Of a stretch of 46,604 nucleotides of DNA, positions 3,482 through 41,855 are shown one piece after another. Positions within the stretch are counted from its first letter, which is position 1; the number at the start of each line of letters is the position of its first letter. The notes beneath the pieces are model-generated. The model was given only the letters and a program-made list of their open reading frames with translations. It ran no database searches and was not told the origin of the DNA. Source of the stretch: a virus (Duplodnaviria; Heunggongvirae; Uroviricota; Caudoviricetes); the IMG/VR virus record IMGVR_UViG_2565956727_000002, one strand, 5' to 3'. The translations under genes and the position numbers were made by a program.

Positions 3482-6400
3482 TCAATGTTCGCTTCCTGTT
3501 AACTGCCCGACAAGTGCAACCAGTTCGCTTACCTGATTTTCCAGAGTGCGGATCCGGGTGCCTGCTGTTGCCAGATTTTTACGTAGCGTTATGTTTTCCT
3601 CTTCCAGCGCGGTAACGCGACCATCTGTTTCACGGGCGACCTGAACAAGTAACCCCGTCACGGCGGCGTAGTCAACATTCAGATAACGTGTTTCTTCACG
3701 TAATTCATTGCCGTCAACCGTTGGTCCCTGCAACTCTTCACCGTAATGAGTAAACGATCCCACAGCTTCTGGTATCGCCTCCATTACTTCCTGTGCAATA
3801 ACGCCAGCATAAGGCATCCCGTTTTCCCTGAGCGTGTAGGTGTATCCGTTCATTTTACGGATTGCTTTCGTCGCGTCGCTGATAACGAGAATATCGTCTT
3901 TAAGGTCGCGGTCTGATGACTGATTCAGCGTTGTGCAATTAATAGCGCCATTTACATCAAACAACTGGCCTGCTGACGTTTTTTGCGCATAAAACAGATA
4001 CGCAGCAGACGTTCCAACCTCAAAAACGTTTTGTCGATCACTTGATCCCCATACTTTTGCGGCAAATGATAGTTCTGTATTACCTAAGTTCTGTAAAACA
4101 AAACGATTGCCAGTCCCTGTTTGTTTTGTAAGAGTTAAATCAACAGTTGAATTAACCTCATCCTTGTTGATAGTGAGCGCCTGCGCTTTAGCCCCGTTAA
4201 CAGCACCTGTTTTGAGTTGAACCGCGCCGTCATTACCATTTAACAGTATCTCAGCTCCGCTAAAGAAATTTTTTAGCGACAGCATCTTACTTACGCCGAC
4301 TGATGAACCCAACGCCCACGCGAGAGAATTACCGGTGCTATCAAACCCACGTACAAAGCAATCCATTTTGCTATAGTCTGACGTGCTTCCAAGGACATCA
4401 ATTCGCCCTCCGCCAGATTTTACCGGGTTAGATGTGGTTAATGACCTGACAGCAAGATCGGTAGATGAATTGAGATCGTCTACTGTTAGTAATTTCTTCC
4501 ATTCCTGCGTCGTTCCATTTTCAATTGTTCTTCCCCAAAAACCGGAATTGCGGCCTCCGAACTGCACAGCATAATTTTTACTAAATTGAACATGAATGCC
4601 GCCAAGAACCATAGAACCTGCCGGGCCGTTTGTACTGCCTGCAATTGGTATAAATTTATTAATGTTATCAGTATGCTGCGTGTTCCAGTCTCGTCCTGTT
4701 TTTGTAAGCAGTCCTAATGTCGTGTCGAGCGCTTCGGTTAAAGTAAGGTTTTTAAATTTAACTGCGCTACTTTCGCCAAGACTTAAGTTGTTTCGCGCAT
4801 CTTCTACTGTTGTCGCACCTGTACCTCCTTGCCCAACAGCTAATGGCAACCAGCCAGTGCCATTATGACAACCCCACAAACCAGATTTGGAAACCTGTAA
4901 GCGTGGTGCGCCTGAAGAATACGTAGAATATACGTAAGTTGTTTCTTTTCCCTCTTCAACCCTTTCTGTTGATACATCTCTCTTCCATTCAGACCAGGTA
5001 CCGCTTCCTCCTTCATATATTCGTCTATAAGTAATTCCCGGATTATTATAAGGGTAGTACACCTGAACGCAGGAAGAAGCAGTGTTGGCTCTCGTTTGGA
5101 GCACTATTAAAGCGCCCGCCAGACCGATTGGGTAATTTAATTCTTCTGTTGCGTAAGCGCTCGTTGGTTGTTGATAGAAACCAGAATATTCACCGGTAAG
5201 GGTGTTTAGGTCAGTATTAGCAAGGCCAGCTTTTTGCTCATACATTACCCGCAAGTTCGCACGTGCTTGCTCGATAGTTCTTCCACCAGTACCGCCCTGG
5301 GCTAAACCTAACGGAGACCATTGTCCAGAAGAAGAATCATAAACCCCCCAACTCCCGTTAGTATGGATTTCAAAGAAACGATCACCAGTTGGACCATACA
5401 TACGAGTTGTTGATTCATTTTGACCAAAGCGGCTTAATTCATCTCTGCGGGTATGACGTATCCATTGCGGGCCAGAACTTTGGCTGTAAATGTACGAATA
5501 CAATGATTTTGTATCTGAACCAACAAATAGACCGGAATATCTTTTTGTTGACACTTCTGATCTAACTATATAACCAGAAATAAGATTATCACCGGCACTA
5601 GACGCTACTGATGGATAACCTTTCGCTGAGATGTAAATCCTGACAAATCCAATATAACCTGATGGCTCAACAGAGATATCAGTGCAGGTCATGGCAACTT
5701 CACCAAGACCGATATTATCGCCAACAATTACTTGCGCCTGGTTGCGATAATTAAGTGCGTCCGCCGCAGATTTCGCCGCGTTTGTTTCACTGGATTTAGC
5801 ATTAGTTTCGCTGGCTTTAGCGTTGGTTTCGCTGCTCTTTGCTGCTGCCTCGCTATTTTTCGCGTTGGTTTCTGATTTTTTGGCTGCTGTCGCGGAGTTT
5901 GCTGATGCAGTTTGTGAGTCTGCTGCCGCCTGTGCGCTGTTATCCGCATTCGTCTCAGACGTTTTTGCGGCCTTCGCGGAATTTCCTGCCGCCGTTGCCG
6001 AGGAAGCTGCACTACTGGCACTTGATGATGCGTTCGTTTCTGATGATTTCGCTGCCTCTTTTGAGGCCGCCGCATCCCGGGCTGAGGTGGCAGCTTCTGA
6101 CGCTTTCGTGGTCGCGGTGGATGCAGAAGTGGCTGCAGATTTTTGTGACGCTGCAGCATTCGTTTCTGACGTTTTCGCCGCACCGGCACTGGTAGCCGCC
6201 GCGCTTTTTGAGGACTCTGCAGCGGCAGCACTTTTTGATGCTTCAGTAGCCTTTGTTGATGCCGTTCCTGCGCTGGAAGACGCTGACTGAGCCGACGTCG
6301 CGGCCTGCCCGGCTGATGTGCTGGCTGCACGTGCTGAGCCTGCAGCATCAGTCGCATGGGTTGCCGCCTCACGGGCTGATGTGCCGGCATCGCTGGCTGA

Positions 6401-7521: not shown

Positions 7522-10500
7522 TCAACGAATACTGATGCCGGAAGCCGCTTTTTTGGTCACAATCACCGTACAGTCGGTGATATTGCCTGCCCCCTGATTG
7601 CCTTTCTGGAAAATCTTAAACTCCAGAGTGACGCTACCACCACCACTAGGCATATCAATAACTGCACTGTAACTACCGGGAATGGCCCCTTTAGTTTCTC
7701 TGGATGCGATTAATACGCCGTTTTTGCGAACTTCAAAACCATAACCCGTGTATCGCGTGCCTCCTGGGTTATTTCCGCTCCCCGGATCGTCATACGCTAT
7801 ACCGTTAAAAATAATGGGCGGAATAATAATCTGGCGGTCAAAGTTATGATCATCGCTGATGGTGACTGTAACCGTACCGTCTGGTGTTTCCGTGTTACCC
7901 CACGTACCGACTTTTTTCGGGAAGGCTTTTGATACAGCTTTAACGAAATCCCCTCTGACCTGGGTCGCCTCCAGCATGCCCTTAATCGTACAGTTCTGGT
8001 TAATCGTGACATTGTTGAGCGTTCCTGAGTTCGCATTCACACTGCCACTGATATCCGCATTTTTAGCGGTCAGCTTTCCGTCTGATGTCAGGGAAAATAC
8101 CGGAGGACTGCCACCACTGGTAATGGTGGGGGCCGTCAGGCGCTTCAGGAACACGTCGTTCATGAATATCTGATTGCCCTGCGCCACAAACATCGGCGTT
8201 TCATTCCCGTTTGCCGGGTCAATAAACGCGATACGGTTAGCGGCAACCAGAAACTGGCTCAGCTTGCCTTCCTCCGTGTCCTCCATGCTGAGGCCAATAC
8301 CCGCGACATAATGTTTGCCGTCTTTGGTCTGCTCAATTTTGACGCCCCACATGGCATTCCATTTATCGTTAGCGTCCTTCCACTCTTTCGAAAACTCATC
8401 CAGTCTGCTGGCGTTATCCTCCGTCAGCTCGACTTTTTCCAGCAGCTCCTTGCCGAGATGGGATTCGGTTATCTTGCCTTTGAAAAAATCCAGGTAACCT
8501 TCCGCATCATCGCTCGCCCGACCGACGGCCTCCACGAATGCCGATTTGCCAACGGTGTTCACACTGCGGATATAAAAGTAATAATCATGGCCCGGTTTGA
8601 TATTGATACTGGCGGCTATCCAGTACAGCCCCGTGCCAAGGTAGCGGGCTGTGGTTTCAACCTGCCTGATATCGGTAATCCGCGTTTCCGAGAACCAGAA
8701 CTCAAACTGTACCGTCGGATCATAAACCGCAAGATGCGGCGTGGCGGTTATCTGAAAATAGCCCGGCGTCAGCTCAATCCGCGACGGCGCTGCCGGTGCG
8801 GCAATCCGGAACGATACCGACGCCGGATCGCCCTGCTGCCCCCAGGCATTTGCCGCCCGGACTGTCAGCCTGTAGTTTCCCAACGCCAGTTGCGTGAAGC
8901 GGTATGTGGTTTCCGTCGTCCGGGCCGTGCTGACCAGCCGCTCACTGCCGTCATCCGCTGCCACGGTCAGGCGAAGCATAAAGCTCACGCCCTTCACCAC
9001 CTTCGGCGTGTCCCAGCGGGCCAGTACCTGATACTCCCCGCTGTCTGCGGTGACTTCGGCAGTCAGGTGCTGCACCGCTGGCGGCGTGACACCATTCACC
9101 GTGCCGCTCTGGTCGCCGTCAAAGTGCGCCCCGTTATCCACGATGGCCTCTTTTTCCGGTACATGCTGCACGGCGGTGATGGCATACGTGCCGTCGTCGT
9201 TCTCACGGATACTCACGCAGCGGAACAGGCGCTGGCGCAGCGTCGGCAGCTTCAGCCCCCACACGCTGTATCCGGCAACGCCGTCAGGAACACGGCTCAC
9301 TTTTACCTTCACGCCGTCGGTGACGGACTGGACCTCCACGCTGACCGGATTGCCACTTCCGTCAACCAGGCTTATCAGCGTGGTACCGGAGGATGGCAGA
9401 GTGATTTCACGGTCGAGCGTCAGCGTCCGGGTCTGGCTGTTTACCGCCAGCACGCGCCCGCCGATGCTGATACCGGCATAGTCATCATCACAGATTTCAA
9501 TAACATCGCCCGGCACATGGCGAAGCCCTTCTGCGCCCACGCTGAAGTCCACGGTCTGCGTTTCCAGCAGTTCTGTTTTAATCAGCCACAGCCCGGCGCG
9601 ATGTGCCTGCCCCCGGCTGGTACAGCCAAAGGCATCCATCTTCGTGACGTTACGACCGTAACGGGCAATGGCCTGCGTGTCCTCCACAAGCTCTGTCGCC
9701 GTCTCCCAGCCGTTATTCGGGTCAATCCAGTTCACCTCAACGGCATTATGGCGGTCCTTCAGGGCGCTGAAGCTGTAGCGGAACGGCGCGCCATCATCCG
9801 GCATCACCACATTACTGCGGTTATAGGTCCACACCTTATCTGATGGTCGGTCCTGCACGAACGTCAGCGTCTGCCCGTTCCATACCGGCATACAGCGCAT
9901 CGCCGAGCAGAAATCACTGAGCACATCCCACGCCTTGCGCTGTGTGGTCAGGCACGCATTACAGGTGATGCGCGGCTCCGTGCCGCCAAAGCCGTCCGGC
10001 ACTGACTGGTCGCAGTACTGGCCGATGACATACAGCGCCCATTTGTCCACATCCGCCGCACCAAGACGTTTCCCCATGCCGTAGCGCGGGTGGGTCAGCA
10101 TATCCCACAGACACCAGGCCATGTTGTTGCTGTATGCTGGTTTTAACGTTCCGTCCCAGATACCGCTGTATTGTCGCGTCTGCGGGTTATAGTTCGACGG
10201 CACCTGCAGAATGCGCCCGCGAAGATGATAATTACGACTCACCTGCTGGCTGCCGAACTGCTCCGAGTCCACCTGTACGGCGACCAGTGCAGTGTTCGGG
10301 TAGCACTGTTTCACATCGATGATTTCGGTGTATGACGACCAGAGCGTTTTGTTCTGCAGCTGGTCTGTAGTACTGTCCGGTGTCATCCTGCGCATCCGGA
10401 TATTGAACGGGCGCGGCGGCAGGTTATCCACCACCACCGAGGCCAGATACTGCGAGGTGGTTTTGCCCTTAATGGTGATGTCTTTTTCCGTCACCCAGCC

Positions 10501-10935
10501 ACCGTTACGCTGTATCTGAACCAGCAGGCGGACTTCCGACGGATTCCTGTCTCCCTTTGAGGTGGTTTCCACCAGTGCCTGTACACCGAAGGTAAAGCGC
10601 AGACGGTCGATGTTTGCCGACGTGATGGTCCGGGTGATCGGCGTGTCATATTTCACTTCCGTACCCAGCACAGTCTCGGAGCCGGAGGATTCAAACCCCT
10701 CCGGCGGTGACTGCTCCTGCTCACCTGCCCGGAACACCACCGTGACGCCGGAGATGTTGGTATTCCCCTCATTGTCCAGCACCGGCGTACTGTTCAGCAG
10801 CACGCTTTTTAATCCATCCACCGGACCTTCAACCGGCCCTTCACTGATGGCATCGATCACACTCAGCAGTTGCGTGGACTTCAGGTTGTCCTTCGCTTCG
10901 CGCGGGGTATGCCCCTTACTGCTGCCTTTACCCAT
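7522..10935 (-). CDS. J: tail tip host-specificity protein J (central tail fibre)
   Basis: 1137 aa, lambda J-like throughout (fibronectin-like repeats, C-terminal receptor-binding region); gene order I-J-lom. Confidence 0.95.
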
Positions 10936-25388: not shown

Positions 25389-25916
25389 CTAGAGACTCTC
25401 TCCTTCCTCATCAGGAATTAATTCAGCAGCACAAGCCTCGTAGGATTTTTCCTGAAGAGTGTATCGCAGGTCATCAATGGCCTGCTGTACAACGCCGACG
25501 GCCTGAGGAGTCAGGGCGCAATCGCGTTCAAGAACATCCGGAATTGTCTCCAGAACCTGGACGACAGCCTTTCTCATGGACGAATAGACGATGACTACTT
25601 CATCAACGGGGATGAGTTTTCGCTGCTCCTTTTCCAGCTTGATCCTTTCATTTTCAGATTGGTACCAGTCCTTTCTCTCTTTCGGCTCCATACGGGATGG
25701 ATCATGAACAGAGTCTGCTGCCTCATGCTTCACACTAAACAGGGCTGGCCCGACATGCTGCAGGGCGTAAACGGGGTTCCCCCTGATAGTCGCAGCCACA
25801 GGAGTGTTGGCCGCGAGGAGCCGTTTTTTTACTGTGTCCCGGTGAAGCCCAAAGGCCTCAGCGATTTTAAAAACACTCCAGTAATAAGCATCACCGATCC
25901 CGCTCACATTTGACAT
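25389..25916 (-). CDS. nu1: terminase small subunit (Nu1-like)
   Basis: N-terminal winged-HTH-like region directly upstream of TerL; start at ATG 25916 (GGAG about 8 nt upstream); ORF track extends to 25946. Confidence 0.8.
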   Translation of the reverse strand: MSNVSGIGDAYYWSVFKIAEAFGLHRDTVKKRLLAANTPVAATIRGNPVYALQHVGPALFSVKHEAADSVHDPSRMEPKERKDWYQSENERIKLEKEQRKLIPVDEVVIVYSSMRKAVVQVLETIPDVLERDCALTPQAVGVVQQAIDDLRYTLQEKSYEACAAELIPDEEGESL

Positions 25917-26059
25917 AAGCAACTCCATCTGGCAGGTGAAAATCATGTTTATTTATATATTTCAATTAATTGCAAACTGGTCTAATGACAGGGAGAAAAA
26001 AATATTGTACAGGTGAAAAGAGAAATAACTTTTAATTATCAATAAATTACCAAACATGC

Positions 26060-26170
26060 TGCCGCCGCCATGGAAATGCAAAAACTAGCCTTTTTCCGCG
26101 ACGCTCCCGCCCCGTGGCAGGGGCCCCCACCGGGAGGACCCGACAGCCTGACAGCCTGACAGCCGTGATG
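26060..26170. promoter_or_regulatory. candidate cos / terminase recognition region
   Basis: Short GC-rich island directly upstream of the small terminase gene with a hairpin (gcccc-gtggca-ggggc) and three tandem gacagcc(t/g) octamers at 26142..26165. Confidence 0.3.
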
Positions 26171-26300
26171 AGCATCTGATACAGCGCTTTACATAATGGC
26201 ATAGGAATAATTCAGAAGGACATCACAGCATGCCCACACAAATTAGTGTGAGTGTCCTGTTTCTTCCTACGCACAGGACTGACGAGCATGAGGGGAAAAT

Positions 26301-26468
26301 ATGCGAACCATAAATGCCTCATCTTCAGCAATGCAACCGGCATCCGAACAGGACGATATTGTAAATTCACCTAATTACGAGGACATTGCAGTAGTTGAAT
26401 TGCAGCTCTGTATTAGCCTGACAGTGACAGAATGCGATATTGACTCTGTCACAGGTGAAATAGTTTGA
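26301..26468 (+). CDS. hypothetical small protein (about 55 aa), not in the ORF track
   Basis: ATG preceded by GAGGGG; MRTINASSSAMQPASEQDD...; contains an 8-bp inverted repeat near its 3' end. Confidence 0.3.
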   Translation: MRTINASSSAMQPASEQDDIVNSPNYEDIAVVELQLCISLTVTECDIDSVTGEIV

Positions 26469-26488
26469 ATGATTAGCAGTTATGGTGC

Positions 26489-26695
26489 TCAGTCAACCAC
26501 CAGGGAATAATCCTTCGAATTCTTATCGTGCTTCACCAACGCTGCCTCAATTGCCCTGAATGCTTCCAGAGACACCTGATGTTCTATACATGCAATTACA
26601 ACATCCGGGTAACTCATAGAAATGGTGCTATTAAGCATATTTTTTACACGAATCAGATCCAACGAGAGTTCATCAGCAGATTGTTCTTTATTCAT
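26489..26695 (-). CDS. hypothetical small protein (68 aa)
   Basis: ORF of 68 aa in the moron region between the cos region and gnsB; no recognisable motif. Confidence 0.4.
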
Positions 26696-26980
26696 TTTGT
26701 CGCTCCATGCGTTTGCTCGTCATCTAGCGGTTAAAATATTACTTCAAATCTTACTGCATAAAAGAGGAAAAGTATGAAAGTTTGAGTACATCGACCTTAC
26801 ATACATCTGTCGGTTGCATATCCCTCCTGGATGCCAGCAAGGCTCAATTTTGTTACGCAATCAACACTATTCATCAAAAACAGGCTTAATATTTGACATA
26901 AATCATCAACAAAACACAAAGAGGTCAGACCAGATTGAAACAATAAACACGATAATGCTAACTACGCGCCATCGTATCAC

Positions 26981-27328
26981 ATGGAAGGTTTACCAATGGC
27001 TCAGGTTGCCATTTTTAAAGAAATATTCGATCAAGTGCGTAAAGATTTAAACTGTGAATTATTTTATTCTGAGCTAAAACGTCACAATGTCTCACTTTAT
27101 ATTTACTATTTAGCCACAGATAATATTCACATTGTGTTAGAAAACGACAACATAGTGTTAGTAAAAGGACTCAAAAAGGTTGTAAATGTTAAATTCTCCA
27201 GAAACAAACATCTTATAGAGACCTCCTATAATAAGTTGAAATCAAAAGAAATCACATTTCAACAATACAGGGAAAATCTTGCTAAAGCAGGAGTTTTCCG
27301 ATGGGTTACAAATATCCAGGAACACTAA
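26981..27328 (+). CDS. DUF1398-like phage protein (YdfO/YbcV-like)
   Basis: About 110 aa; C-terminal ...[19 protein letters not shown]... recalls the DUF1398 family found in this position of lambdoid prophages. Confidence 0.45.
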
Positions 27329-27557
27329 AGATATTACTATGCCTTTGATAACTCATTACTATTTACTGAAAGCATCCAGAAAACTACACAGATCTTACCA
27401 CGCTAAACCATAACGTCCGGCTTCTCTCACTCCTGAGCCGGACTGCATTGGTTTAATAAAAACCATCAACAATTGTGATTTAGATATTCGGAACCATTCA
27501 AATATAACAAAACCCCGTAAAAACGAGGTTTATGGATAAATTTTATTATTGAATACA

Positions 27558-27734
27558 TCAGATTAAATTAATCTTGACATCATAGCTTTCAAGACCCGTC
27601 ATTTTTTCCCGTGCGGTAAACTGAATACTGGTAACTTCTTTCCCGGTCTTTTTCTTAAGTTCAATAATTTTTTTTGTTATATATTCAGAAATATCTGCTT
27701 CTGCTTTTGTTTTTAAGTTTTCAATATTCATCAT
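27558..27734 (-). CDS. gnsB: GnsA/GnsB family protein
   Basis: 58-aa ORF found by manual translation (below the ORF-track cutoff): MMNIENLKTKAEADISEYITKKIIELKKKTGKEVTSIQFTAREKMTGLESYDVKINLI, closely resembling GnsB. Confidence 0.8.
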   Translation of the reverse strand: MMNIENLKTKAEADISEYITKKIIELKKKTGKEVTSIQFTAREKMTGLESYDVKINLI

Positions 27735-27902
27735 TTCCTCTTTTAGTCTGTTATGACTTTCCAGTTACACAGTAAGTCGATTATATGGTGCAAACGTGTA
27801 AAAGATAAGATGAAACATCGCAATAATCAACATACGATAGTCTAAATTTTACACAAACAGACAAAGAGAATTTTCCTGAATTATCAATACAATAGCATCA
27901 AA

Positions 27903-28133
27903 TCAACTCAAGAGCCTTATTGCTGCTTCCAGAATTTCTTCTGAAGTAACATGTCGATCCGCGGCTACATAAATGACTTTATGATCTCCGGTCAGAGATG
28001 GAAACCCTGCGGCCATTACAGTAAGGTGTGTTTTTTCGCCATTTGGATATTCACGCATGATGGTGTTAACTCCAGTCATCGCTGGCACTACCACTGCTGG
28101 TTCAGAGTTAAAAAAAACTATGATTTTTTTCAT
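27903..28133 (-). CDS. hypothetical protein (about 76 aa)
   Basis: ORF starting MKKIIVFFNSEPAVVV...; no recognisable catalytic motif. Confidence 0.4.
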   Translation of the reverse strand: MKKIIVFFNSEPAVVVPAMTGVNTIMREYPNGEKTHLTVMAAGFPSLTGDHKVIYVAADRHVTSEEILEAAIRLLS

Positions 28134-28404
28134 GATGTTACCGTAGTATGTGAGTATCCATCGAATAGATACCAAGCAAAAAAGCTCCCGAAGGAGCCTT
28201 CATTTTCACTTTTTTAAATCCAACGACAGACGGCTGGCATTTAAGTATTGTGAAATATTATCAAATGTAATCATCATTGATTTACAAAAGATACATTTTG
28301 CCCCGAAAGGATTCATGTCAGAAACATCAAAAGATGATGTTCTATACTGGGAACCATGACAACACGGGCATCTAAAGTGAATATGGTTTGTAATATTGTC
28401 TACC

Positions 28405-28617
28405 TCAAAGCGCCACTACATGAACAGCGGCAGGACCTTTAGGTCCGTTCTCAATACCAAATTCAACTTCCTGATTCTCAGTTAATGTTTTGAAATCGTT
28501 GCTCTGAATTGCTGAGAAATGGACAAACACATCTTTGCTGCCATCTTTCGGCGTGATGAAACCAAAACCTTTTTCAGGGTTAAACCATTTCACTAAACCA
28601 GTCATTTTGTTAGACAT
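28405..28617 (-). CDS. cspI: cold shock protein CspI
   Basis: 70 aa with CspA-family RNP motifs (KGFGFI, VFVHF); sequence matches CspI as I recall it. Confidence 0.95.
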
Positions 28618-28979
28618 AATTATTACCTTTTGAAGAAATTAGCCCTTGGGCAGAATGGTCCGAAAAAAAATATCAGAGAGAAAAACCAACAAGGAAATCT
28701 CAAGAGGTACAAATAATAAAATTATAACAATGACTGCTTCAGATAAATTTGTAACAAACCAGAACACCATTAACGCATGATTAACCACCCATAGCAAGGA
28801 TTACTTTTGTAAAGAAAAACACAGCAATGAAAGAATAGCTTTATTTATTAATAAAACGTGTCATTCTGATTAAGACCTTTTATCTTACCCTTAAGATTTC
28901 AGGAATTTTGGCTCATGGAAGAGTCCTTTTTATTTAAATTTTACATTCCGCGATGTAAATGTTCCGATTTAATATTACC

Positions 28980-30003
<1,024 letters not shown>

Positions 30004-30925: not shown

Positions 30926-31288
30926 TTGATTTTATTAGTAACAAGTATTTTTTATATTTTAATAATATATTTAAAGCAGATAATAAAAAACCCGCCTGAG
31001 CGGGTTTGAGATTGTGGTGCTTTTTGTGGGAGTCATCCACTTACGCACTTTGTTTTGCCATGCCAGCAGTTAGCTTCTGCTGTAAAACTATTCATGCAGC
31101 AAACCTGCACTTCACCACAATGGTTAGCATACTTTTCCTGATTAAGATTTTGCCAAATATGCTAGCCATTGTTTCATGTATTGGACCTCCTTACTTTTTA
31201 TTAAAGAGATCCAATATTCACTACTCTGTCCGTATCTCTACTCAGGCATCAGCCTTCTTCGTTATCGTATACAGACGAGCGATGAATT

Positions 31289-31504
31289 TTAATCAGTAAT
31301 GATGACATTTGCTGCTGCAGGACCTTTAGCACCACTCTCTATAGAGAAGGTAACCTTTTGACCTTCAAATAAGGTTCGATAATTATCATTCTGAATCGCA
31401 GAAAAATGCACAAACACATCTTTACTACCATCAACAGGAGAAATAAAGCCGAAACCTTTATCAGCGTTAAACCATTTTACTAAACCAGTCATTTTATTTG
31501 ACAT
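31289..31504 (-). CDS. cspB: cold shock protein CspB
   Basis: 71 aa with CspA-family motifs ([17 protein letters not shown]). Confidence 0.9.
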
Positions 31505-31804
31505 TCTACATTCCTTAACTTGAGCCTTTCGGCATAAATGGTTTGCATAACAGAAACGACTTCGTACTTAATTGGAGAGACTCAAAGAAGGAATAAGTGA
31601 ATAACACCTGAAATGAGAACTGCTTTAGTAAACTACTTCGTATATCGTCTGTTCTTCAAACCGACGCAATCATTAACGCATAGTTGAACATATGAAGCAA
31701 TGTTTATTTTAGACATCCAGCCATCTTCAACCCCATCAAAAAACTATAGCTTTCTTCAGGAACGTGTGTATAGTGCGCCAAGTTATCAGTATTAAGGAAT
31801 TTTT

Positions 31805-35068: not shown

Positions 35069-35224
35069 TTACTCCTCAGGTTCGTAAGCTGTGAAGACAG
35101 CGACCTCCGTCTGGCCGGTTCGGATTCGTACCTCGCAGAGGTCTTTCCTCGTTACCAGTGCCGTCACTATGACGGTTAAACAGATGACGATCAGGGCGAT
35201 TAACATCGCCTTTTGCTGCTTCAT
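35069..35224 (-). CDS. hokD: Hok-family membrane toxin (HokD/RelF)
   Basis: 51 aa MKQQKAMLIALIVICLTVIVTALVTRKDLCEVRIRTGQTEVAVFTAYEPEE, a canonical Hok toxin. Confidence 0.9.
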   Translation of the reverse strand: MKQQKAMLIALIVICLTVIVTALVTRKDLCEVRIRTGQTEVAVFTAYEPEE

Positions 35225-35281
35225 AGCCTGCTTCTCCTTGCCTTCCGGCACGTAAGAGGCTAACCTACATGTGTCTAGCAT
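35069..35281 (-). CDS. mokD: Mok-like in-frame N-terminally extended reading frame for hok translation control
   Basis: 70-aa ORF including the hok frame with a 19-aa N-terminal extension, as for mokC/hokC. Confidence 0.5.
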   Translation of the reverse strand: MLDTCRLASYVPEGKEKQAMKQQKAMLIALIVICLTVIVTALVTRKDLCEVRIRTGQTEVAVFTAYEPEE

Positions 35282-35420
35282 GAAATTGGCCTCAGATTAA
35301 TGTTAAGCGTCTTGCAGGACGCGTAATGTTAACTGGGGCTTTTCTCTATCTGCCTTTGGTGTTCATGCCCGAGGCAGATAGCCTCAAGCACCCGCAGCCA
35401 TTCTACTTAACTACCTTTAC
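35282..35420. promoter_or_regulatory. hok mRNA leader / putative Sok-like antisense RNA region
   Basis: Non-coding region upstream of mok/hok with an extended inverted repeat (tatctgcc...ggcagata); by analogy with hok/sok loci. Confidence 0.35.
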
Positions 35421-35902: not shown

Positions 35903-37678
35903 TTACTCTTGCAATTCGATGATCTGCTCTTTACCTAGTAGATGATTAATAATATTTAATACTTTTTCTCTGTTCTGGAAGAATCTTGCTATATAACTAT
36001 TGGGGAAGACTTCCTGTATGTGATTATAAGTATCAGAAGCCAGCTCTATACATTCCTCCAGTGAAACGTTTCGGCTATAAGAGAAGATGTGATTCTCCAC
36101 AGAGGAAACTTCTATTTTATTCATGAGTATGGATATTAAAACATAATTTCCATGAATCATTATTTGATGAATCTGCTTCTGATTTTCCATATCTACTGAT
36201 AGTAGTTTAACTATACTTTCTTGCAATATATCATTTGCTAATCTATAAGCATTTACTTTATTTATTATATCCAAACCGGTAGGACCATTTTCAGCTGGGA
36301 ATACTTTTTCATAAAGACCTCCCCAGCTTTCAAAAAAACGTCCTCTATTTAGTTTTAAGGAAGATATCAATGTTTCATCTTTAGAGGCACACACTAATGC
36401 GTTTAAAGCATCATCAATATCAATGGTATTACCACCTGTCTGGCTGGAGTCTTCTTGCCTGAGTAGTTTGTAGCTATATCCGCCAATAAAGTTTATTTCT
36501 CTTTGTATTCTTTGTTGCTCGGGCCTCTGTGATGAGAAATCTCTTCCAGTAACCCTGTTTTGTGTATTGTTGAATTTAGTGACAGAGGTTAAAAAATCTT
36601 CTTTTGCTGCACTGATAAATCTAATGCTCACCTTGATTAGATCTTTTTTTTCTTCGGGTAAAGAGTTGAACACTTCACCAATAGTGCTTACAGTTTGAGC
36701 TCCATTTATTATACTCAGACTTTTAAAACTAAATAGCCCGTACTTCCTGCTTGTACTTAAGTTGATCATGCTTTCTTCTACATCACTATATACAGCAGTT
36801 ATCCCATTGTTATAGTACCAAAAATTCTCCGGCTTTTCACTTAATGTTTTCTTTATCCCAGAGTTTATGGATGAATTACCGAGGACACTTCTTATATTTT
36901 TCTCGAACAGAGAGTACTTGTACTTTTCCCACCAGTCGTATAGGATCCTTGCGGATATTGTTCCGTATATTGCTTTATAAGGTTCTGCTATCTCTCCATA
37001 ACTTTCAAGGTGAACATTGCTAACATTTATAGATTTTGATCGATCATTAGAAAGACCATCCATTATCACTTGTATACCTGCCGGCTCGAATAGCACTGAA
37101 TACTCATCTCTATTCTCTATATCTTTAAATAATAGAGACCGATTCTGAACCTTTTCCCAAAACTCTATGTCTGATTTTACTTCCTCGCTTGGCTCATGAA
37201 CCCCTGTATATATAAATACACATATACATTTATATGTAAATCCTGAGATTGCTTCAATTATGGAGTCTTTGTTTCTTAAAAACCTTTCGTTAAATGTTGT
37301 AAAGTCGCTGGCTATTACTTTTGCGCATGCGTCTTTGAATCTTCCGAATTCTCTTGTGGTTATAGAACCGTCGCCATTTTTAATATATTTTGACTGAACT
37401 ATTACTATCTTTCTCGAATTTTTATTAACATAAACTGCATCTATCCCGCCATCATCTTTTCCATCGCAGACAGCATTAGCAGCTAACTCAGGGTCTGGTT
37501 CATCACCATACAAGCTGATTGCATGCGCAGCTACACAGCGTGTAATTAGAGTTTCTTTCCTATGCTCTCCTACGGAATTAATATCTTTCATATCAATAAA
37601 AGTTCCGTATATAGACTCTAATTGATTAGTTATGCGTACTAAACCTGCTGTTTGCGTGGCTTTGTCGTACTGGGACAT
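35903..37678 (-). CDS. putative abortive-infection / anti-phage defence protein, AIPR-like, with N-terminal PD-(D/E)xK-like nuclease motif
   Basis: 591 aa in a markedly AT-rich segment; N-terminal DGGIDAVYV...IVIVQSKY nuclease-like motif; central NGAQT motif characteristic of AIPR proteins; own terminator and about 290 bp upstream non-coding region. Confidence 0.6.
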   Translation of the reverse strand: MSQYDKATQTAGLVRITNQLESIYGTFIDMKDINSVGEHRKETLITRCVAAHAISLYGDEPDPELAANAVCDGKDDGGIDAVYVNKNSRKIVIVQSKYIKNGDGSITTREFGRFKDACAKVIASDFTTFNERFLRNKDSIIEAISGFTYKCICVFIYTGVHEPSEEVKSDIEFWEKVQNRSLLFKDIENRDEYSVLFEPAGIQVIMDGLSNDRSKSINVSNVHLESYGEIAEPYKAIYGTISARILYDWWEKYKYSLFEKNIRSVLGNSSINSGIKKTLSEKPENFWYYNNGITAVYSDVEESMINLSTSRKYGLFSFKSLSIINGAQTVSTIGEVFNSLPEEKKDLIKVSIRFISAAKEDFLTSVTKFNNTQNRVTGRDFSSQRPEQQRIQREINFIGGYSYKLLRQEDSSQTGGNTIDIDDALNALVCASKDETLISSLKLNRGRFFESWGGLYEKVFPAENGPTGLDIINKVNAYRLANDILQESIVKLLSVDMENQKQIHQIMIHGNYVLISILMNKIEVSSVENHIFSYSRNVSLEECIELASDTYNHIQEVFPNSYIARFFQNREKVLNIINHLLGKEQIIELQE

Positions 37679-41796: not shown

Positions 41797-41855
41797 TTTC
41801 TGGTGAAGTTTGGCGGTATCAGTTTTACTCCGTGACTGCTCTGCCGCCGTTTTTA
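41797..41855 (+). ncRNA. dicF: DicF small regulatory RNA
   Basis: Sequence TTTCTGGTGAAGTTTGGCGGTATCAGTTTTACTCCGTGACTGCTCTGCCGCC followed by a T-run, matching DicF as I recall it; terminator stem ggcgg/ccgcc. Confidence 0.8.

Follow-up and report, generated by a model that had tools for sequence, protein, structure and literature searches.

Known genes, a probable chance reading frame and three putative expression units at the accessory right end of a Qin/Tritos-type lambdoid prophage

Genes and signals between the lysis cassette and cos

The 46,604 nucleotides analysed here (hereafter the window) make up a complete Qin/Tritos-like lambdoid prophage. Positions 26000-28700 are 100% identical to the annotated E. 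coli FREC5, and positions 26113-28700 are 99.7% identical to Tritos, a phage of E. coli LF82 that is induced spontaneously and for which RNA-seq has provided a catalogue of morons (PMC9928086). The segment of interest, 26200-28400, is supported as the accessory part between the lysis cassette (Rz) and cos. Its composition deviates from that of the phage backbone, with a GC content of 0.32-0.39 across 26501-29000 versus 0.50-0.62 in the structural genes, in line with the AT-rich spacers described in the initial annotation, and its gene content is mosaic among relatives: the csp-gnsB cassette is missing in lambda and DLP12, and ybcW is missing in K-12 Qin. The genes and signals found, with coordinates and strand, are as follows.

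26098-26165, no strand: cos region, rich in G+C; at 26112/26113 the two ends of the linear Tritos record meet
26301-26468, + strand: 55-aa open reading frame, most likely a chance frame across a mosaic junction
26489-26695, - strand (that of the late transcript): ybcW, 68 aa, WP_001031431.1 (RefSeq CDS; phrog_657, E 5e-47)
26919-26935, no strand: PdhR box AAGAGGTCAGACCAGAT, in the 300-nt divergent ybcW/DUF1398 intergenic region
26996-27406, + strand: DUF1398 gene (ybcV/ydfO family), a pseudogene (RefSeq "internal stop"; translation)
27404-27455, + strand: strong hairpin just past the normal DUF1398 stop codon (MFE -21.9 kcal/mol, z = -5.99, 0 of 200 shuffles as stable)
27510-27531, - strand: predicted intrinsic terminator downstream of gnsB, a 9-bp stem followed by a T-rich tail (fold)
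27558-27731, - strand: gnsB, 57 aa (RefSeq; PF08178, E 3.3e-35, cut-off 27 bits)
27780-27785, - strand: perfect TATAAT, candidate -10 element of gnsB, read from the sequence, with a weak -35, TTATCT
27903-28133, - strand: ynfN, full-length 76-aa allele from ATG, 90 aa from an upstream TTG (RefSeq; phrog_3425, E 7e-54)
28138-28203, - strand: ynfR, 21 aa, containing a terminator-like hairpin (RefSeq; translation)
28178-28198, - strand: that hairpin, GGCUCC-UUCG-GGAGCU plus a U run; it begins 7 nt past the ynfQ stop codon
28206-28394, - strand: ynfQ, 62 aa, with an ATT start and a CxxC...CxxC pattern (RefSeq; translation; UniProt YNFQ_ECOLI cluster)
28378-28763, - strand: cspA-type thermoregulatory leader plus cspI coding region (Rfam RF01766, 112.8 bits versus a gathering score of 78, E 3e-28)
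28405-28617, - strand: cspI (RefSeq; PF00313, E 1.6e-31)

The position of cos was located by comparison with the Tritos record. The match to Tritos stops at query position 114, which is the end of that record, and Tritos TerS begins at record base 197, which puts record base 1 at window position 26112; cos is thus placed, provisionally, at the point where the record ends meet. Within the G+C-rich region around this point, GACAGCCT occurs in about three copies at 26142-26164.

The initial annotation described this region as a string of small unknown morons, and much of its inventory was correct: open reading frames of exactly 55, 68 and 76 aa exist at 26301-26468 (+), 26489-26695 (-) and 27903-28133 (-), and hairpins lie at 27531-27510 (-), 27404-27455 and 28198-28178 (-). 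It also named gnsB-like and DUF1398-like genes, and both are present (PF08178 and PF07166), but it overlooked that the latter is a pseudogene, and it missed ynfQ and ynfR altogether. The three small frames were said to carry no recognisable motifs. Pfam, NCBIfam and PADLOC scans of them indeed gave nothing significant, but all three match PHROG families (phrog_4035, phrog_657 and phrog_3425 for 55, 68 and 76 aa, respectively; E 1e-41 to 7e-54). Two of the supposed unknowns are YbcW/lambdap79 (68 aa) and YnfN (76 aa); none of the three is a new discovery, and the genes are already annotated in RefSeq.

Searches for further signals added little. A permissive Rfam scan of 25900-28900 returned the cspA leader as its sole match, and a repeat search yielded short pairs at chance level only. 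A consensus promoter scan found 6 sites versus 11.4 expected from shuffled sequence, none of them for gnsB or ybcW, and lent individual promoters no support. Signals that might serve single genes are the terminators after gnsB and the DUF1398 gene, the cspI leader, the TATAAT before gnsB and the PdhR box.

The 55-aa frame and the divergent ybcW/DUF1398 pair

The 55-aa frame is most likely spurious: comparison with related loci suggests a chance frame that runs across the boundary between packaging module and accessory segment. Homology to lambda and DLP12 begins only at about 26343, within the frame, and in those phages the corresponding stretch has in-frame stops and lies downstream of the ylcI stop codon. 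All 31 lambda/DLP12-type loci are non-coding here, and the first 14 codons have no homologue in them. The initial annotation had made conservation in related prophages a test of its small genes, and this frame fails it: no more than 45 of 85 related loci have an intact copy, compared with 83 of 86 for the neighbouring ybcW, and in 9 of 54 close relatives it is frameshifted or has lost its ATG. Neither RefSeq (PGAP) nor the authors of the Tritos record annotated it. That it instead encodes a genuine small protein specific to the lineage of Tritos-type phages is improbable on this evidence, even though a reasonable Shine-Dalgarno-like GAGGGG stands 5 nt before the ATG, the frame is called as a gene in many genomes and constitutes phrog_4035, and the few substitutions among intact copies are mostly synonymous. 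The frame ends 20 nt from ybcW, and there is no spacer between them of the kind that was claimed to surround each small frame; the same is true of ynfN, which follows ynfR by 4 nt.

YbcW is 91% identical to lambdap79 over 68 aa (6 of 68 residues differ) and to DLP12 YbcW. The name is taken from the Tritos record and one NCBI/UniRef entry, whereas the RefSeq label for the exact protein is "hypothetical". Its gene is on the late strand, flanked by the DUF1398 gene and cos, a layout shared with lambda (bor, lambdap78, lambdap79) and DLP12 (borD, ybcV, ybcW, ylcI), both of which have a divergent DUF1398/ybcW pair by cos, with proteins 91-93% identical and in the same orientation to late transcription as in the window. 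These two phages differ from the window phage in carrying bor where the latter has the csp-gnsB cassette, and ylcI (DUF3950) between ybcW and cos, where the window has the probable chance frame. According to a 2026 preprint, lambdap79 is the trigger of the Vulcan NADase (NIR-NADase) defence system, a role shown for the lambda protein only. The predicted structure of YbcW (three helices, with a mediocre pLDDT of 70.9) gave no structural match, and an exhaustive HMMER search recovered close relatives and fragments only, with no remote family. A word-index search with YbcW was swamped by ENA contigs of about 3.5 kb carrying error-ridden copies.

The DUF1398 gene, which is antisense to late transcription, has a matching domain (PF07166, E 2.4e-36; PDB 2HH8 YdfO, E 1e-51) but is interrupted in the window by a nonsense mutation, CAA to TAA at 27326-27328, which converts Gln111 of a normally 136-aa protein into a stop codon. 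Comparison with a near-identical strain shows only two differences, this C-to-T change at 27326 being one of them; the gene is intact in Tritos, unlike the window copy, and in 76 of 78 full-length relatives. Between it and ybcW lies AAGAGGTCAGACCAGAT, the exact reverse complement of the DLP12 ybcV-ybcW PdhR site (PMC7660256), which occurs once in the window, with none expected by chance, and is exact in 80 of 89 related loci; DLP12 thus has the same box as the window, whereas lambda has no exact match. The DLP12 site has been experimentally mapped, and in a pdhR mutant the level of both DLP12 mRNAs drops about 10-fold (PMC7660256). PdhR may therefore control ybcW and the DUF1398 gene in this phage as well, as judged from the identity of the site. 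We propose that the divergent pair around the PdhR box would constitute one expression unit, in which the DUF1398 member has been inactivated by the nonsense mutation.

gnsB and the cspI-ynfQ-ynfR-ynfN cluster

GnsB matches the sequence of the solved GnsA structure (PDB 4XO2, E 5e-20), and overexpression of gnsB reportedly increases unsaturated fatty acids and restores low-temperature growth. In samples of the LF82 lysogen, gnsB RNA exceeded that of ynfN, the gene just upstream, 4- to 60-fold (PMC9928086), and the perfect TATAAT may mark a separate gnsB promoter. A second expression unit would thus consist of gnsB with its own promoter and terminator, and its product would move membrane lipids towards unsaturated fatty acids.

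The remaining genes of the late strand are packed closely, with gaps of 10 nt between cspI and ynfQ, 2 nt between ynfQ and ynfR, and 4 nt between ynfR and ynfN, all too short to hold separate signals for ynfQ, ynfR or ynfN. Homologues of ynfN were found at 49 species loci in more than 15 Enterobacteriaceae genera, at 36-100% identity; a same-strand csp gene lies upstream in 40 of the 49, with ynfQ/ymcF in between in 38, and the csp-ynfQ-ynfN cluster also occurs outside recognisable prophage context. Published data show co-regulation. AZT induces cspI 6.5-, ynfQ 5.9- and ynfN 5.8-fold, with SspA dependence of 38-, 42- and 51-fold, respectively, and the profiles of cspI and ynfN match across growth phases. 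From gene spacing, cross-genus synteny and this co-regulation, ynfN is the distal gene of a cspI-ynfQ-ynfR-ynfN cluster, which is probably organised as an operon. CspI is reported to be induced on temperature downshift (Wang et al. 1999, as cited elsewhere), and YnfR-SPA accumulates after cold shock (PMC6001520).

The ynfN frame itself has all 76 residues conserved from M1 in the alignment and a pN/pS of 0.22 against phage HannyBb. The confidently predicted fold of YnfN, five strands and a helix, matches no solved structure: its AlphaFold model (pLDDT 87.9) gave no PDB match (best E 0.3), a PDB sequence search with a YnfN profile returned nothing, and a comparison with a viral structure library gave no match, the best E of 0.015 being to uncharacterised proteins.

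Two K-12 loci are informative for this cluster. The Qin prophage (ynfO-ydfO-gnsB-ynfN-ynfR-ynfQ-cspI) shares the gene order of this segment and is nearly identical in DNA from gnsB to cspI, but it has ynfO (DUF3950) in place of ybcW, and its ynfN, having lost 1 nt from the T8 run (28117-28110 in the window), is frameshifted and annotated as 51 aa. The chromosomal cspG-ymcF-ymcE-gnsA locus is a paralogous cassette, with a csp gene, an ATT-start CxxC protein 10 nt on, a hairpin with a T run directly past the stop codon of that protein, and a gns gene last; the ATT start of ynfQ is kept in its paralogue ymcF. It differs in its middle gene, ymcE, which is unrelated to ynfN, and in the lack of the 171-nt spacer before the gns gene. 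What corresponds to a short ymcE stretch over the hairpin is ynfR (KAPSGAFLLG versus RLPRGAFFIS). Paralogy of YnfN with YmcE and of YnfQ with YnfU is unsupported, as neither pair shows similarity.

The comparison with cspG also bears on whether gnsB and ynfN might form a toxin-antitoxin pair, as proposed for GnsA-YmcE. PF08178 is named "GnsA/GnsB toxin" in Pfam, and ynfN occupies the ymcE position upstream of the gns gene and is of equal length. This arrangement is nevertheless highly improbable for the present locus: YnfN and YmcE could not be aligned and a YmcE homologue is absent here, the two genes are 171 nt apart with gnsB RNA far above that of ynfN, in other genera a gns gene usually does not accompany ynfN, and a frameshifted ynfN stands beside an intact gnsB in K-12 and in 6 of 50 viral loci.

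The hairpin inside ynfR suggests how the cluster may be regulated. It folds at -14.9 kcal/mol, though with a z of only -2.4, and is short, with 5-6 strong pairs. A hairpin with a T run stands at the equivalent place after ymcF in the K-12 cspG locus, and hairpins with different stem sequences precede ynfN in Citrobacter, Raoultella and Klebsiella, a likeness that is qualitative, as the stems were misaligned by MAFFT. About half of the distant genera have no obvious hairpin before ynfN. In LF82 grown in LB, cspI RNA was about 19-fold more abundant than ynfN RNA (955 versus 51 normalised reads; PMC9928086), an excess that partial termination would give. Attenuation at this hairpin is therefore plausible. 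We propose a further expression unit, in which cspI-ynfQ-ynfR-ynfN would be driven by the cspI promoter and the cspA-type temperature-sensing leader; the hairpin in ynfR probably ends most transcripts, and ynfN would be expressed from read-through. Csp proteins are known antiterminators, and their RNA-melting activity may aid read-through in the cold; alternatively, ribosomes on ynfQ/ynfR may do so. Instead of depending on read-through, ynfN could be transcribed from its own weak promoter lying within ynfQ/ynfR. Extended to the family, the tentative idea would be that csp-ynfQ-(hairpin/ynfR)-ynfN is a conserved, self-gated cold-response cassette of Enterobacteriaceae, in which Csp or the ribosomes on ynfQ/ynfR suppress a terminator in a 21-codon frame and so switch on YnfN as an effector of cold or stationary-phase adaptation; we regard this broader proposal as possible rather than probable.

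Expression in the lysogen and readings of the whole region

Transcription of these genes can be judged from published RNA-seq of the LF82(Tritos) lysogen (PMC9928086). In addition to the cspI and ynfN values given above, normalised reads in LB were 274 for gnsB and 32 for ybcW, compared with 9, near background, for the DUF1398 gene and 8-14 for Rz and terminase, which were silent. Expression was thus high for cspI and gnsB and moderate for ynfN, and several accessory genes, cspI, gnsB and ybcW among them, were transcribed in the uninduced lysogen beside silent flanking lysis and terminase genes. In LF82, ybcW was also up in macrophages (log2FC 4.94, about 30-fold; PMC9928086). The operon boundaries proposed here are suggested by spacing, synteny and bulk RNA-seq of this 99.7%-identical prophage.

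These data can be set against the original proposal of a string of separate morons, each with promoter and terminator, in which the three small frames are uncharacterised lysogenic-conversion genes. The AT-rich composition, the terminators after gnsB and the DUF1398 gene, and the lysogenic expression of gnsB, cspI and ybcW beside silent lysis and terminase genes all speak for that proposal. We consider it unlikely as a whole, since ynfN lies 4 nt from ynfR in a csp-ynfQ-ynfN cluster conserved across genera, the 55-aa frame is not conserved, and the 68- and 76-aa frames are already named, studied genes. The designation as a moron region is broadly right, the segment being accessory, mosaic and deviant in composition, but it does not hold three unknown, independently expressed genes; ynfN in particular is no independent unit, being distal in the csp cluster.

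A different emphasis would be that the late-strand genes from cspI to ybcW serve mainly lytic growth of the phage, via a Q-antiterminated late transcript crossing cos to the head genes. cspI, ynfQ/ynfR/ynfN, gnsB and ybcW all share their strand with the lysis and packaging genes, and therefore expression during lytic growth is also expected. Csp RNA chaperones might, for example, help late expression in the cold, and YbcW might act during infection. Vulcan senses lambdap79 during lytic lambda-vir infection (2026 preprint), and lambdap79, a dispensable gene, was scored as "essential" by CRISPRi, which is what blocking late transcription would be expected to produce. However, neither lambdap78 nor lambdap79 is essential, deletion of lambdap79 lets lambda escape Vulcan with no evident cost (2026 preprint), uninduced lysogens express cspI, gnsB and ybcW, and the csp-ynfQ-ynfN cluster is also found outside any recognisable prophage context. 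A mainly lytic role is accordingly a minority possibility, and one that can coexist with lysogenic expression.

The reading that we favour, with a probability of about 0.78, is that the segment 26200-28400, when extended to 28763, forms the right-hand accessory end of a lambdoid prophage of the Qin/Tritos type, composed of known genes and one spurious frame and organised in three expression units. Little of this is new, as RefSeq annotation and Tritos lysogen transcriptomes have been published and the lambda homologue of the 68-aa frame has been named as a defence trigger. The value lies in corrections: removal of the 55-aa frame, addition of the small genes ynfQ and ynfR, recognition that the DUF1398 gene is inactive here, and a reading of ynfN as part of a probable csp operon instead of a free-standing moron. 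YnfN and YbcW are widely distributed, and the conserved csp-ynfQ-hairpin-ynfN layout leads to a simple, testable regulatory hypothesis.

Gene content and prophage context

The stretch from cos to cspI is correctly described as an accessory moron region. Its three small ORFs, which the initial annotation called unknown and independently expressed, are all present at the sizes stated, and the segment is AT-rich (GC 0.32-0.39 vs 0.50-0.62), but the known small-protein genes ynfQ and ynfR had been overlooked. The DUF1398-like gene is truncated by a C>T change at 27326 that converts Gln111 to a stop codon; it is intact in 76 of 78 full-length relatives.

Gene content of 26200-28763
26301-26468, plus strand: 55-aa ORF, unannotated
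26489-26695, minus strand: 68-aa CDS (YbcW)
26996-27406, plus strand: DUF1398 CDS, flagged "internal stop"
27558-27731, minus strand: gnsB
27903-28133, minus strand: ynfN, 76 aa
28138-28203, minus strand: ynfR, 21 aa
28206-28394, minus strand: ynfQ, 62 aa, ATT start
28405-28617, minus strand: cspI with a cspA-type thermoregulatory leader (Rfam RF01766, 112.8 bits)

According to RefSeq annotation, the whole 46.6 kb is a complete lambdoid prophage with ydfJ as its insertion site, in the order integrase, dicB/dicA immunity region, Q (ydfT), lysis genes, accessory segment, terminase, head and tail, with the late genes on the minus strand. The 2.7 kb around the three-ORF region (26200-28400) is 100% identical to the E. 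coli FREC5 chromosome; of 5,426 complete E. coli genomes, 440 cover at least 80% of this segment and 3,408 contain some part of it. Among sequenced phages, Escherichia phage Tritos (prophage 3 in the adherent-invasive strain LF82) matches 26113-28700 at 99.7% identity. Both ends of the linear Tritos record meet at 26112/26113, which places cos where it had been assumed. An almost threefold repeat of GACAGCCT (26142-26164) lies 30 nt from this meeting point, and could belong to the terminase recognition site as a cosB-like element. At about 4740-4810 of viral contigs L007-L056, the same accessory segment with cos-proximal DNA is joined to two small-terminase types, with 99% or about 42% identity to the DUF1441 protein of the window, so recombination takes place just beyond cos. 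The annotation lists the host-specificity (J) tail gene (7522-10935, minus strand) as a pseudogene carrying an internal stop; this and the nonsense mutation in the DUF1398 gene suggest that the prophage copy is decaying and may make no infectious particles, unlike the 99.7%-identical Tritos.

A probable chance frame beside a YbcW homologue

The 55-aa ORF was annotated neither by PGAP nor by the Tritos authors. In a set of 80 viral contigs retrieved via the neighboring 68-aa protein, plus reference loci, it was intact in only 45 of 85 loci, in contrast to the adjoining 68-aa gene (83 of 86). In nine close relatives the frame is shifted or the ATG is missing, and in-frame stops interrupt it in all 31 lambda/DLP12-type loci. 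Only from about 26343 onward, within the ORF, is the sequence homologous to lambda and DLP12; the space upstream is occupied there by ylcI (DUF3950), whose stop codon directly precedes the sequence shared with the window. Given the patchy conservation and the homology that begins inside it, the 55-aa ORF is most likely no gene, but a chance open frame spanning a recombination junction. The PHROG family that exists for it reflects only the repeated prediction of one ORF by gene callers.

The 68-aa ORF, with 91% identity to lambda lambdap79 and DLP12 YbcW, is by sequence a YbcW/lambdap79 homologue. As in those phages, it lies beside cos on the late-transcript strand and diverges from the DUF1398 gene (lambdap78, ybcV). 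The 300-nt divergent intergenic region holds AAGAGGTCAGACCAGAT (26919-26935). Its reverse complement is identical to the PdhR site that was mapped in the ybcV-ybcW interval of DLP12; loss of pdhR reportedly lowered both of these mRNAs about 10-fold (PMC7660256). Of the 89 loci compared, 80 carry this PdhR box without a mismatch. A September 2026 preprint reported that lambda-vir evades the Vulcan NIR-NADase defence system by losing lambdap79 via recombination with K-12 Qin, and that co-expression of lambdap79 and Vulcan is toxic, identifying lambdap79 as the Vulcan trigger. We found ybcW to be absent from K-12 Qin, which fits the reported deletion. The YbcW family is narrow: an exhaustive HMMER search returned only close relatives, and a three-helix model of the protein (pLDDT 70.9) had no counterpart among solved structures. 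ENA contigs about 3.5 kb long contributed more than 2,000 clusters of protein matches to 26492-26695, made up of near-identical YbcW/lambdap79 variants full of errors; these probably derive from lambda-based sequencing control DNA, and make the family look more diverse than it is.

Published LF82 RNA-seq values have to be read with care, as product labels for this stretch are off by one gene in Table 1 and Table S1 (Tritos sheet) of PMC9928086. The entry "LF82_0907, YnfN, 27-fold" is gnsB by coordinates (1610202-1610375) and by its 174-nt length, and is named GnsB in Table S4; the row labelled YbcV is ybcW. We therefore assigned values by coordinates and lengths, compared with the Tritos record. 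On this basis, ybcW RNA is low in LB but about 30-fold higher in DMEM and macrophages (log2FC 4.94), and RNA of the DUF1398 gene remains close to background (PMC9928086).

The cold-shock cluster cspI-ynfQ-ynfR-ynfN and gnsB

Sequence comparison identifies the 76-aa ORF as full-length YnfN, whose gene stands last in a conserved cold-shock cluster. Conservation in the family alignment begins at Met1. K-12 ynfN has T7 instead of T8 (window 28117-28110, codons 6-8), and this 1-nt deletion and the resulting frameshift explain its 51-aa annotation. The identical N-terminal loss in 6 of 50 viral loci and one GTDB E. coli genome indicates that the T8 homopolymer is a recurrent mutation site. The pN/pS of ynfN against phage HannyBb was 0.22. 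When one genome per species was scanned, homologues (36-100% identity) occurred at 49 loci in more than 15 Enterobacteriaceae genera, with a csp gene upstream on the same strand in 40 and a ynfQ/ymcF homologue in between in 38, frequently in surroundings where no phage genes were seen. YnfN is predicted with confidence (pLDDT 87.9) to consist of five strands followed by a C-terminal helix, and this structure had no match in the PDB or a viral structure library.

With gaps of only 10, 2 and 4 nt between cspI, ynfQ, ynfR and ynfN, the last three genes lack space for individual signals. Directly after the ynfQ stop codon, within ynfR, lies the hairpin GGCUCC-UUCG-GGAGCU with a trailing U run (28198-28178). 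An equivalent hairpin and T run follow ymcF in the paralogous K-12 cspG-ymcF-ymcE-gnsA locus, and others precede ynfN in Citrobacter, Raoultella and Klebsiella, with differing stem sequences. YnfR (MKAPSGAFLLG...; 28138-28203) corresponds to the part of YmcE (..RLPRGAFFIS..) encoded across this conserved hairpin (K-12 ymcE, 1848-2078 of that locus, L087); ynfR thus looks like a retained 5' piece of a ymcE-like ORF, the remainder having been replaced by ynfN.

YnfR-SPA was seen upon cold shock (PMC6001520), cspI, ynfQ and ynfN react alike to AZT and to SspA loss (PMC11228462), and the growth-phase profiles of cspI and ynfN are equal (PMC7406224), with cspI RNA about 19-fold higher than ynfN RNA in the LF82 lysogen (PMC9928086). 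These data are consistent with transcription of the cluster as a single cold-shock unit in which termination is partial. Csp proteins are antiterminators and melt hairpins in RNA, so that melting of the ynfR hairpin, a candidate Csp- or ribosome-controlled attenuator, could plausibly cause cold-dependent read-through into ynfN.

The next gene, gnsB, probably has its own promoter, since its RNA in LF82 exceeds that of ynfN, directly upstream, 4- to 60-fold in the same samples (PMC9928086), and a perfect TATAAT (27785-27780) lies 49 nt ahead of its ATG, with a good terminator downstream. GnsB overexpression was reported to increase unsaturated fatty acids and to rescue low-temperature growth defects, making gnsB a functional companion of the csp genes.

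Accessory elements and assessment

Further stress-related accessory elements of the prophage are a second cspA-type leader (for cspB), cspF, hokD/sok, DicF RNA and ydfK, a cold-shock gene close to the tail end (31273-31665 and 35219-35393, minus strand; 41798-41849, plus strand; about 2070-2303); cold-shock genes are thereby spread over at least three sites within one prophage. A gene for an AIPR-family (abortive-infection-type) protein (35903-37678, minus strand), flanked by the replication genes and hokD, is likely an anti-phage defence moron.

The conservation and transcription checks proposed in the initial annotation have largely been carried out by others: the genes are conserved, and are transcribed in a lysogen. 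Its claim of three unknown genes, each expressed independently, is not borne out: they resolve into one probably spurious frame, YbcW/lambdap79 and YnfN, and the region contains only known kinds of element.
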